In this document: positions 16,822 through 21,174 of the stretch, piece after piece
Layout of the letters: every line of letters starts with the position of its first letter
Position numbering within the stretch: the first letter of the stretch is position 1
Made by a program: the position numbers and the translations under genes
The notes under the pieces: generated by a model
Seen by the model: only the letters and a program-made list of their open reading frames with translations
Database searches by the model: none
Told to the model about the DNA's origin: nothing
Assembly: GCA_963719515.1 (NCBI GenBank)
Contig: CAVRCJ010000003.1
Coordinates: 766,470 to 830,469, forward strand
Source: an uncultured cyanobacterium
GTDB taxonomy: Bacteria > Cyanobacteriota > Cyanobacteriia > CAKZMO01
Length of the DNA: 64,000 nt
Direction: 5' to 3'

Positions 16822-16941
16822 TTTCTCTATATGCCTAGATAGTGACGTGACGGGATTCTCTCTGTTGGGCGACGAAAGCAGACCTGAAAACCCTGGACAA
16901 TGGTTTTGGCTGTTCTTTCGTACACGTTAGCACCCCCCATT

Positions 16942-18235
16942 ATGGCACTGTTCAAAATAGGCGATCGCGTTCCAGACTATGAAAATCAGTACCTCAATGG
17001 CAGAGCGGTCAAGGGTGTTGCCGTTTACGCTAATGATGAAAAAGTCGGCAGCGCTCACGACCTTTTAGTGGATGATGACGGTCGAATTCGCTATTTAGTC
17101 ATCGACACTGGATTTTGGATTTTTGGGAAGAAAGTGCTGCTGCCCATTGGGCACTGCGAGGATGTAGCAGAGAGCGATCGCATCCACGCCAACGGGCTCA
17201 CCGAAGCGCAGGTAGAAAATCTGCCGGCATATTATGACGAGCTTGTAGTAGACGATGACTACGAAAAGCGGGTGCGCTCAGCTTACCGAACGGCGACGGC
17301 AGACCAACCTGCCTCTGAGAATGATCATAATGACCCTATTGCGCCGGAGACTCACGAACGGGAGGCAGATGCAGACGCCACGGGGGATGATGGGTCTCGT
17401 CGGCTGCGTCTATATGAGGAGCGGCTTGTCGCGCACAAGCGTCGTCAGAAGACGGGCGAAGTTAAAGTGAGCAAGCGCGTCGTGACAGAGCAGGTTGAAG
17501 GCTCTGTGCCCCTGTATAAAGAGAAGATTATTATCGAAATCGAGTCGTTTCCCGGCATGACCCAGGTCAACGTCGCGGGGAGGACGGTCGAGACGGGCAG
17601 TGGCGCCCGCGCCGATCTGTACGCTGACGAACTCGAAATTCGCAAAGAAGCGGTGGTTCGCCAAGAGGTCACAATCCGCAAAGAGATCGACGAAGAGGTG
17701 GTGACCGTAAGCGACACCGTGCGGCGAGAAGAGATAGAGGTGTACCAAGAGGGCGTATCTGAGGTTGACGGTGTTGACCGTGAAGCCTCACAGACAAGGT
17801 CTAGCGCTTCCGAAGCACCCCCCGCTTCCCAGACGACGAGCAGCGCGCCTCAAAAAACGAGCAGCGCGCCCCATCGATCGACCACCGCGCCTCAAACCGC
17901 CTATTTAATCTTTAATCCGGCTGCGGGTCAGGGAGACCCCGAGCAAGAGCTTGGCGTGATTCGATCGGCGCTTGAGCCTGAGATGACGCTCAATATTCAT
18001 GAGACAACGCCAGAGGTCGGTGCCGATCAGCTCGCGCATCAGGCTCTGGAGGCGGGTGCGGAAGCGGTCTTGGTGTCTGGCGGTGACGGGACGATCTCTT
18101 CCGCTGCCAACGCTGTGGTGGGCCGCGACGTCCCGCTCGGCATCATTTCCCGAGGAACCGCAAACGCCTTTGCTAATGCCTTAGGTCTGTCTGAAAATAT
18201 TGAAGAGGCTTGCCAAACCATTCTTCGAGGCACGA
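16942..18235 (+). pseudogene. PRC-barrel + DUF2382 + diacylglycerol kinase (YegS-like) fusion, disrupted at 18236; residual C-terminus at ~18628-18717
   Basis: YLVIDTGFWIFGKKVLLPIG (PRC), LRLYEERL (DUF2382), IFNPAAGQG..GGDGT..RGTANAFA (DAGK). The sequence switches to an IS605-type end after ILRGT. Confidence 0.8.
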
Positions 18236-18618
18236 GTGACATCCTCCCGACGCTGACAGCAAGCTGTACAGCGCGGGCTTCCTCAGTGACTCCCAGCTAT
18301 TGCCGAGACATATCCTGAGATAGGTTTATACTCCGCCTGATGCCCCACGGCAGAGTTTTGAATTTTCATCTCCGCGAGGGAGGATACGCACTATGTGTCG
18401 CAGATACATTTGCAAACTGAGGAACGGGTAACTTGCAGCTTTCGCCTACGGGCCCGTCACACTCTTTGCGGGGTGTATCACCTTGCTATCTCTATCATAC
18501 CAACTGCTAGCCTCAGCGCTGAGCGCACTATCCGCTGTGCATCATTTTGCGGGCGCACTTCGGCTAGCGCGACTCTCATCCCGACGCTCACCCTGACGGG
18601 TAGAGCGCGGGGCTTCCT
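18236..18618 (-). mobile_element. Non-autonomous IS200/IS605-derived element (383 bp, no protein) carrying a probable omega-type RNA
   Basis: Two related subterminal hairpins in the same orientation (minus strand GAAGCCC(C)GCGCT...AGCGTCGGGA); right end finishes GTCAC; decayed tnpB-3'-like sequence; no TSD. Confidence 0.75.
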
Positions 18619-18826
18619 GTCTAGTAGCTAACCATTTTTGCGCCGGACGAGGCTGCCCCGGAGCCTCGTGAAAGCATTGAGCAATTGCCGAACGCCAAGG
18701 TCAGGGAGAAGGCTTAACAGCTGACGTTTTGGGCGCTTTGGGTTCAGCCCAGGCGATGTTGCTGTAGACCGTAACCCAGCTGTTTGCCCAATGAGTATTG
18801 CGTGAAGGCCACGATCGCTTTTGGGC

Positions 18827-19807: not shown

Positions 19808-19890
19808 GGTGATGCCTTCCGGGAGGGGGTATTTATGATCATAGCCCCCTGCCGTTGGCGTCTCTCCGGAGGGGACCCTGGACATTTTGG

Positions 19891-20199
19891 CTAGCGGGCT
19901 ATCTCTAGGGAGCGCAGCCGCATCAAGTAAAACAGCACCTGCCCCTGACTCTGGGTGATGTGAACGCCGCTGGGGCCAATCTCAATAGGGCCGGTCCACC
20001 TGACTGGCTCGACATAGCGCTTCAGGTGCAGCCGGTAGATGGTTTCGCGGACGCCTTCAGGGGAGCCGATGAGGATGTGGCGGACAACTTCGCTGCTGGG
20101 GCCAGGGTCGGGGGGGGTGAGCAGGGTGGGAGCGGCCTCTGTGGCCAGCATGTCAGGTGCGGCCTCGGGTTGAGGCAGCTCAGGATATAGAAATGTCAT
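19891..20199 (-). CDS. Small cyanobacterial hypothetical protein
   Basis: Pro-rich N-terminus then RHILIGSPEGVRETIYRLHLKRYVE..W, a pattern recalled from a cyanobacterial family; GAGAG RBS-like sequence upstream. Confidence 0.7.
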   Translation of the reverse strand: MTFLYPELPQPEAAPDMLATEAAPTLLTPPDPGPSSEVVRHILIGSPEGVRETIYRLHLKRYVEPVRWTGPIEIGPSGVHITQSQGQVLFYLMRLRSLEIAR

Positions 20200-20417
20200 G
20201 GGTTTTCTCTCTTTTTTATGGGGTAAGAAAACCCAAAAATAAGGTCGTGCCTTGTTTTGGGCGGCTGAGGTGGCTGCAGATATTGGATAATACCTGCAGC
20301 TCGAAGACAGCTATGTCCTGTCCAAGGGTCAGGGTGCGATCGCCACCGCTAATGGCGATCGCACCCGTTTGACCAAATTTTTGGGGTTAGCAAGCTGCAT
20401 CGGACTACAGCTTCTAG
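20200..20417 (-). ncRNA. Putative highly structured leader/ncRNA upstream of the small ORF
   Basis: Stems at 20392-20413, 20332-20366, 20273-20300 and 20200-20234, plus long-range pairing 20230-20246 with 20371-20388. Confidence 0.6.
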
Positions 20418-20423
20418 CAGATG

Positions 20424-20452
20424 AGTGTAGCGCCTTAGGGGATGAGAGGCAA
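20424..20452 (-). promoter_or_regulatory. Sigma70-type promoter for the structured leader
   Basis: Minus strand TTGCCT-N17-TACACT immediately upstream of the first hairpin. Confidence 0.55.
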
Positions 20453-20670: not shown

Positions 20671-21174
20671 ATGACATTTAGCGAAAAAATCAGTCAGTCT
20701 AGCAAACAACCCAGCGACCCCCGCAATCAGGAGCAGGTTACCCCGGCTGAATCGCCCGCCAACGGCAATCTGGCTACGCCCGTCAACTCGTCTAACTTTT
20801 CTAAGACTCTTATTAATAATATGCCTGCCTACCGCGAGGGGTTGTCTATTACCCGTCGGGGTCTGGAAGTGGGGCTTACCCATGGGTTAATCATCTATGC
20901 GCCTTTCGCTAAGCTCGGTCCCCTGCGGGATACCGACATTGCCAATGCGGTGGGGCTGCTCTCTAGCGTTGGGCTAACCATCATTCTCACGGTGACGCTG
21001 CTGCTCTATGCCGTCAGCAATCCGCCTGCCCCGATTCAAACGATTACTACGCCTAATCCTCCTAACGCAATGGCCACCAGCGAGGGCTGGAAGGACTATG
21101 CCAAGGGATTCTGCATCGGCAGCTTTATTGGGATTGCGATCGCCTACGCAGTGGTGACCCTGCTCGGTCTCTAG
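20671..21174 (+). CDS. psaL: Photosystem I subunit XI paralog (PsaL2-like)
   Basis: GNLATPVNSS, NMPAYREG, RRGLEVGLTHG, KLGPLRDT; N-terminal DPRNQE motif. Confidence 0.9.
   Translation: MTFSEKISQSSKQPSDPRNQEQVTPAESPANGNLATPVNSSNFSKTLINNMPAYREGLSITRRGLEVGLTHGLIIYAPFAKLGPLRDTDIANAVGLLSSVGLTIILTVTLLLYAVSNPPAPIQTITTPNPPNAMATSEGWKDYAKGFCIGSFIGIAIAYAVVTLLGL

Follow-up and report, generated by a model that had tools for sequence, protein, structure and literature searches.

A ~220-nt leader predicted to fold into several stems, with a promoter in front of it and a small ORF behind it, lies on the minus strand of a 64,000-nt stretch of DNA from an uncultured cyanobacterium (hereafter the window), and the question is what such a self-contained unit does. 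An initial annotation made from the letters alone had offered four answers: a riboswitch-like leader, an RNA-protein particle with variable hairpins, a toxin-antitoxin-like unit or a small mobile cassette. We found its promoter, hairpins, long-range stem and ORF by sequence and folding, all of them where it had placed them on the minus strand (Table 1). The long-range stem P1 encloses P2 to P5, with P0 on its 5' side and P6 over the Shine-Dalgarno region, and the whole leader has a folding energy of -93.4 kcal/mol (z = -8.76), a value that none of 200 shuffles reached. A strict promoter scan did not call the mRNA promoter of the window copy, because its 8 of 12 consensus matches fall below the required 9; TTG-N(16-18)-TAnnnT is kept in 43 of the 44 close copies described below, with a drifting spacer. 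Some of the earlier proposals held in part. The long-range stem and the hairpin over the ribosome-binding site do overlap and could compete, but by just 3-4 G residues. The 14-bp hairpin P2 is real, but its construction from two HIP1 sites is incidental, because one whole subfamily keeps the hairpin without HIP1. In the proposed protein motif (HILIGSPEGV..I..LH...Y.....W) the Gly, Ile, Leu, Tyr and Trp are near-invariant, but the His is not kept in a second subfamily. Three elements had been overlooked: the P3 GACAG/CTGTC hairpin, the P5 helix (degenerate in the window copy, where folding predicts 3 pairs) and an antisense unit.

Table 1. Parts of the module copy in the window, in window coordinates.
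Feature	Position	Strand	Basis or remark
Promoter -35 box TTGCCT	20447..20452	-	Sequence; 17-nt spacer to the -10 box
Promoter -10 box TACACT	20424..20429	-	Predicted mRNA start near 20417
P0, mRNA 5' hairpin	20392..20413	-	Folding; 4/7 pairs with double changes
P1 5' strand, long-range stem	20371..20386	-	A-run is the complement of the putative antisense U-run
P2, 14-bp hairpin with copy-specific 7-nt loop	20332..20366	.	12/13 pairs with double changes
P3, GACAG/CTGTC hairpin with variable loop	20305..20323	.	Predicted first hairpin of the antisense RNA; covariation
P4, 12-bp hairpin (one G-U)	20273..20300	-	Loop region contains the predicted antisense promoter
Predicted antisense -10 box GATAAT	20286..20291	+	Motif scoring, 67 leaders
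Predicted cis-antisense RNA, ~85-90 nt, two hairpins then U-run (20378-20382)	20298..20386	+	Inferred from sequence
P5 helix, CATCC/GGATG in most copies	20247..20272 (about)	-	4/5 pairs with double changes family-wide
P1 3' strand	20230..20246	-	Last G residues common to P6
P6, hairpin over the Shine-Dalgarno region beside the start codon	20200..20234	-	Folding; pair counts in 67 leaders
ORF, 102 aa	19891..20199	-	Translation

The window copy is flanked by an ABC transporter gene on one side and by psaL, then Uma2/PIN fragments, on the other. This psaL (20671-21174) is divergent from the module, adjoins the Uma2 and PIN fragments and scores below all NCBIfam equivalog cut-offs; it is possibly a second, accessory psaL. 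The 397-bp repeat at 18235-18631, which overlaps the end of a 472-aa ORF (16900-18318), is an active MITE-like element: at least 8 copies occur in the genome at 99-100% identity, metagenome contigs show it with many differing flanks, and copies of it lie directly upstream of two module copies. A junction between 21580 and 26087 in a single metagenome contig omits 4.5 kb of accessory genes (its short side is 23 nt). A short hairpin repeat with GACGCCAACGG lies 3' of the ORF stop codon, at about 19845-19875, and this 11-mer has 24 occurrences in the genome, including downstream of several module copies.

The module is present many times. In the 5.28-Mb genome the ORF has 60 matches, 46 of them at E 1.2e-12 or better, and a DNA profile of the leader has 55, the 44 strongest of which are all followed by the ORF. 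Of the corresponding 44 ORFs, 39 parse as intact, 4 carry breaks and one escaped the parsing pattern, so that at least 4 leaders persist in front of a broken ORF. A covariance model recovered the same 44 leaders together with 13 weaker full-length and 2 marginal matches; nine of the weaker matches lie in front of genes for a divergent subfamily of the protein, and RNA and ORF are thus nearly always found together. Profile searches for the ORF in the genome counted 81 frames when the threshold was E 0.01 and 78 when it was E 1e-6. The initial annotation had described the protein as often multicopy, and the count bears this out with 44 close module copies and about 78 copies of the ORF. Similarity between copies often begins within a few bases of the -35 box and ends at the stop codon, although one clade has an additional 100-640 bases upstream in common. 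The closest pair is about 94% identical and there are no near-identical copies. Over 730 ORF pairs the median dN/dS is 0.49, and it is below 1 in 13 of the 15 closest pairs and above 1 in the other two, values that indicate purifying selection on the ORF copies. A HIP1 site falls in the 60 nt preceding the promoter in 20 of 44 copies versus 106 of 1361 control windows, the controls being unmatched for intergenic DNA. By eye, no terminal inverted repeats or target duplications were seen in the flanks of the 44 copies, no transposase is associated with them, and the 63 neighbours of 30 copies include no reverse transcriptase family, a retron feature. No joint skipping the whole module was found in contigs of four DNA runs from one study.

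Among 201 sampled genomes of the phylum, 24 carry the family, with a maximum of 71 matches in one genome, and the covarying leader is present across several cyanobacterial families. The RNA-bearing form is seen on contigs of whole genomes. The family gene also occurs in 13 cyanobacterial plasmid records, in one case between a ParG gene and a replication gene and in another near a phage integrase; the window protein itself had no plasmid match, and 50,697 phage records gave no family match. Two genomes of the same genus have genes about 85% identical and are not syntenic at the module region; among 12 loci taken from them, a single one has a flank in common with a module site of this genome, and for several the flank was too short to compare. 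No Rfam 15 family exceeded its gathering threshold in the window (best E 0.021, far below threshold), 149 family members matched no Pfam, NCBIfam, PHROGs or PADLOC model, and PDB sequences and the ESM Atlas gave no usable match. We found no description of the family in the main texts of the literature searched; supplementary tables of cyanobacterial dRNA-seq or RNA-motif studies may list it.

The upstream regions of homologues align well and covary. In an alignment of 47 leaders drawn from this genome and others, double changes occur at 28 of 37 consensus pairs and 90.9% of cells pair, and shuffled and slid alignment controls fall far below the real leader pairing, with the caveat that kinship inflates the shuffle test. 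The 44 close copies, the covarying leader and the lack of a match in the family libraries support the undescribed multicopy RNA-protein module that had been suspected. We then counted pair types on the mRNA strand of 67 leaders (44 from this genome and 23 from others). The ratios of Watson-Crick to G-U to A·C pairs are 364/31/1 for P0, 697/77/28 for P1 and 790/22/102 for P2, and P6 has 502/15/4 with a further 15 pairs of other kinds. Since an A·C pair on one strand is a G-U pair on the other, these counts argue for selection on P2 to fold in the antisense RNA, and on P0, P1 and P6 to fold in the mRNA.

The opposite strand carries a candidate promoter for such an RNA. With the -10 consensus as a general yardstick, a -10 box is found in the P4 loop as nAnnnT in 67/67 leaders and as TAnnnT in 47/67, and the two invariant positions of the loop are those of the box. 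It lies 14-19 nt from P3 in 66 of the 67, has a mean score of 5.9 (versus 2.2 for shuffled sequence and 3.3 for the mRNA strand) and beats its own shuffles at p < 0.05 in 31; no conserved -35 accompanies it in the 67 leaders. A start 6-7 nt past the box would give an RNA of 88-99 nt with two hairpins, reaching a U-run. This antisense segment folds better than the mRNA strand in 62 of 67 leaders, and the predicted RNA of the window copy folds at -42.6 kcal/mol (z = -4.71). The U-run begins after a 3-nt gap behind the hairpin and was not called by a terminator scan of the window. A divergent subfamily that came to light after the antisense idea carries TAAAAT or TACAAT in the corresponding position, as a script showed for 10 of 11 leaders and inspection by eye for the eleventh, and all 8 of its leaders that were computed fold better as antisense. 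The sequence signature thus points to a small RNA opposite the 5' region of the mRNA, with a promoter and an end of its own, and we consider this antisense architecture highly probable.

The loops that this RNA would present are close to unique for each copy: all 44 P2 loops are distinct, and the P3 loops come in 41 distinct versions among the 44 copies. In 11 independent close copy pairs, 76 of 152 loop sites differ (0.50) versus 87 of 295 four-fold sites (0.295; Fisher p = 3e-5), though the promoter spacer of the same pairs also diverges fast (77 of 187 sites, 0.41) and four-fold sites may therefore be a low yardstick. Non-cognate duplexes between close paralogues are still long, with a mean of -165 kcal/mol versus -206 for cognate ones, so specificity would rest on loop kinetics alone. 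As for the effect on translation, P6 sequesters the ribosome-binding site in the predicted fold of all 44 copies. When the antisense target was forced to be unpaired, the cost of opening the Shine-Dalgarno/AUG region went up in 32 of 44 copies and down in 2, the mean rising from 8.4 to 11.4 kcal/mol (+3.0; 44 copies), with a gain of only +0.3 kcal/mol in the window copy. In these folding models the rise would fit a loss of P1 followed by full closure of P6. P5 with the U-run behind it is a possible antisense-induced terminator; the U-run is missing in some copies. Two other ideas were dropped along the way. P2 does not qualify as an attC-like DNA site, as its boxes are in the wrong order and it has no GTT. 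LexA control, judged against the commonly known box, is unsupported: none of the 44 promoters has a LexA box with fewer than 2 mismatches, while GTAC occurs in 15/44 promoters versus 6/44 controls.

We also looked at the protein. It consists of a variable Pro-rich N-terminus and a core of ~60 aa, with the near-invariant residues named above and no invariant residue that looks catalytic. No membrane segment is apparent: the highest 19-residue Kyte-Doolittle mean among 39 ORFs is 1.16, with a median of 0.72. A first structure model showed no sheet and no fold match, and a model of the short form gave a strand-helix-strand (beta-alpha-beta) core with pLDDT 96-98. Searches with the second model returned generic half-ferredoxin arrangements only (best Z 4.0 versus 48,161 chains; Foldseek E 0.12 in PDB and 0.038 in BFVD), and matches this generic say nothing on function.

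In many lineages the protein occurs without the long leader RNA, and its neighbours differ accordingly. In a scan of loci outside this genome (48 of 90 candidate frames), an XRE-type HTH or ParG-like RHH gene is the upstream neighbour at 17 of 31 RNA-less loci, 4 of these 17 being from one genus, versus 0 of 15 RNA-bearing loci, one of which has a MerR gene farther away. On a protein tree of 69 rows and few columns the RNA label changes about 6 times, and well-supported branches force 5 of these changes. Some loci have a short hairpin leader only, sometimes in tandem, behind a promoter that bears a palindrome. At two loci (L056 and L070) a ~65-nt HIP1 hairpin unit is tandemly duplicated as the leader upstream of the family gene, and at L070, L052 and L053 a palindrome lies between the promoter boxes, where its position makes it likely to be a repressor site. 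At six loci (L050, L058, L174, L177, L178 and L181) the gene that comes before the family gene, in the same orientation, encodes a DUF7662-HTH_3 fusion, which is a candidate antitoxin or repressor. Given the tight RNA/protein lock, the purifying selection and the lack of a fixed partner, the protein would most simply be a growth inhibitor; granted the antisense architecture, we think toxicity somewhat more probable than not.

The small-gene family, very probably antisense-locked, is real and apparently undescribed. Sequence comparison shows its conserved promoter, the covarying folds, the antisense -10 box, the strand asymmetry, loop diversification, the alternation of repressors and the integrase linkage described below; from these we infer two transcripts, a P1/P6 switch, toxicity and addiction, which would fit together as follows. 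The sigma70-type promoter would give an mRNA with the ~220-nt leader, in which P1 shortens P6 over the ribosome-binding site and lets some translation pass. The leader-internal promoter on the opposite strand would give the two-hairpin RNA of ~90 nt, whose loops may kiss the matching P2 and P3 loops of its own mRNA. The resulting sense-antisense duplex would remove the 5' strand of P1, so that P6 closes fully, and would probably be degraded. With private loops for each copy, dozens of paralogues could be kept without mutual neutralization. For the protein, a soluble growth inhibitor is the most likely role, and each copy would then act as an addiction lock that persists where accessory DNA ends and next to integron integrases. 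We lean, if only slightly, towards this reading of the locus as a type I toxin-antitoxin-like, antisense-locked module with a new soluble cytosolic protein. Of the four options first offered, the toxin-antitoxin-like unit fits best, by way of a cis-antisense RNA that had been missed.

Upstream of the 44 copies there are often PIN, MNT, NYN, TIR, Uma2 or methylase genes or CRISPR-like DNA, and downstream housekeeping genes; one copy has a CRISPR-like repeat array as its immediate upstream neighbour (L007:2138-3056, G000:C10). A link between the family and integron integrases is real. In genomes with at least 10 family matches, a family gene lies within about 500 nt 3' of intI at 15 of 20 loci and never 5' (one locus with too little DNA is omitted), while the chance expectation for such adjacency is well under 1 in 100 per locus. 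Beyond the 30 top-scoring IntI loci treated below, 20 others, picked in family-bearing genomes, include 10 with a family gene, all on the 3' side. As a cause of the link, the module may stabilize integron platforms, be carried along with them or act on the integrase.

The last of these roles leads to the rival that survives best, in which the protein would be an antisense-controlled accessory factor of IntI, and attI-intI-module platforms would have seeded the genome and later lost intI. Besides the 3' linkage just described, deleted intI genes lie 340-640 nt upstream of three module copies in this genome, and 4 modules have 8 of the genome's 11 attC-like sites (2 of the 11 being seeds of the search profile) in the 11 kb upstream of them. 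In 36 of 44 copies, GC content is also lower in the 1.1 kb upstream than on the downstream side (p = 8e-6). However, this polarity was not repeated in 32 further copies (19/32, p = 0.22), 41 of 44 copies have no trace of intI, and the genome has no intact IntI. No attC-like match lies inside or directly after any module copy, and neither an integrase nor an attC adjoins the window copy. Just 4 of the 30 top-scoring IntI loci in the cyanobacterial class have the family gene, and 11 of 47 IntI-bearing genomes have no family match. The IntI-linked genes come in both orientations and from different subfamilies, and a trans-acting cofactor would leave the private loops unexplained. An accessory factor of IntI is a tentative reading and, on balance, an unlikely one. 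Similarly doubtful is the idea of a dedicated integron partner whose RNA-locked protein guards or gates integrase platforms; were it true, 50-80 mutually insulated antisense switches per genome would mark the sites of foreign-DNA uptake, and the two-loop RNA barcode of each copy would be under diversifying selection. One intI remnant is seen at L075:1110-1650 (G000:C18), where about 47 codons from the N-terminal end of the gene and 20 from the C-terminal end are left; attI-like repeats come before it, and 21-nt tandem repeats and a HIP1 doublet after it, followed by the module promoter.

Antisense control is also familiar from regulators of mobile elements, as in phage sar/ant and plasmid CopA. 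A non-toxic regulator of this type (an antirepressor, a Cro-partner or a plasmid control protein), spread by hitch-hiking, would explain why Cro/CI-type HTH and ParG-like RHH genes are found as divergent or tandem neighbours, and why the 13 plasmid records include ParG/replication-gene and phage-integrase contexts. We nevertheless consider it improbable, since neither the 50,697 phage records nor PHROGs gave a match, the RNA-bearing copies have no fixed partner gene to regulate, and purifying selection on dozens of dispersed copies would be unexplained if the gene were a harmless hitch-hiker. Less probable still is a riboswitch-like leader that senses a ligand or a protein, or else an RNA-protein particle formed by the protein on its own leader. 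Strong covariation, a P1/P6 overlap that could switch and the nearly constant pairing of RNA with ORF would suit either, but P2 prefers the opposite strand and the protein does without the RNA in many lineages. A ligand-binding riboswitch in particular is disfavoured because the one conserved loop, that of P4, varies like a -10 box and the other loops are hypervariable. Binding of the protein to the leader could coexist with antisense control. Finally, a non-autonomous transposon or repeat with no selected RNA or protein function would account for the sharp ends at the -35 box and stop codon, the patchy presence (24/201 genomes) and the single shared flank among the 12 same-genus loci (several being too short to compare), but is very improbable given a dN/dS below 1, the compensatory changes, the keeping of both promoters and a best copy identity of about 94% versus 99-100% for the 397-bp repeat. 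The mobile cassette of the initial annotation, in its classical form, is likewise not shown, because no pair exceeds about 94% identity and no transposase lies alongside.

Read as a type I-like, antisense-locked module, the family would be a large unrecognized antisense-controlled system with a new soluble protein and up to 70-80 copies per genome. The private loop code of each copy would make it a natural set of orthogonal RNA switches, and it would offer a clean case of one gene family that alternates between RNA and protein repressors. It also gives a testable link to integrons, the role of which has had little study in cyanobacteria.

How does the module compare with known systems? In CopA/CopT and in pT181 attenuation, a two-hairpin antisense RNA of ~90 nt causes or accompanies refolding of a leader, and its hypervariable loops are the incompatibility code. 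The RNA predicted here shares the length, the two hairpins and the hypervariable loops, and would share the leader refolding. Unlike those systems, the module controls a gene other than a replication initiator, and its RNA-bearing form lies on whole-genome contigs.

SymE/SymR of Escherichia coli is, in the excerpted text of its description, a small soluble protein repressed by a cis-encoded RNA; the same text places SymE homologues beside Cro/cI HTH or RHH genes and at mobile-DNA hot spots, gives 14 copies in Erwinia and describes SymE as AbrB-fold (PMC1891008). Our family, also a small soluble protein with a cis-encoded RNA predicted to repress it, resembles the SymE of that text in its alternation with HTH/RHH repressors, its copy expansion and its hot-spot location. 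In contrast to SymE, 0 of 149 family members match any Pfam family, the core is predicted to be beta-alpha-beta where an AbrB fold is described, the 44 promoters have no LexA box with fewer than 2 mismatches, and there is linkage to integrases. AapA/IsoA of Helicobacter pylori, as presented in the portion of the source used here, has a 30-aa AapA peptide, activation by 3'-processing and 6 syntenic loci, and IsoA uses two loops for locus-specific kissing (PMC5416894). Both it and our module are repeated on the chromosome, and the module is predicted to resemble it in a two-stem-loop antisense RNA over the 5' leader, in sequestering the Shine-Dalgarno sequence in the mRNA fold and in locus specificity through loop sequences. 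Unlike AapA as it appears there, the module has a globular core of ~60 aa, a putative leader-internal switch and sites that turn over within a genus. At about 78 copies the family is also far larger than the 14 of SymE and 6 of AapA given in these excerpts.

Within the phylum, MsoT1/MsoA1 of Microcystis aeruginosa, the one cyanobacterial type I candidate that we found published, is called the first such candidate in the available part of its report; it has an opposite-strand antisense RNA, MsoT1 has predicted transmembrane helices, and the screen retained membrane proteins only (PMC12390103). A cyanobacterial host and an opposite-strand antisense RNA (predicted here) are common to both, whereas our protein, unlike MsoT1 as excerpted, has no membrane segment. 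More generally, it is not a short hydrophobic transmembrane peptide of the kind seen in Hok, Ldr, AapA and MsoT1. With sedentary integrons, In0 and CALIN elements, as treated in the excerpted source (PMC4889954), the family shares a setting: its genes often abut intI, and attC arrays lie upstream of 4 modules. Unlike the integron cassettes of the same text (PMC4889954), the module sits across intI from the cassette array, on the 3' side, is equipped with promoters of its own and lacks an attC. The module would work like SymE/SymR and AapA/IsoA and belongs to neither.
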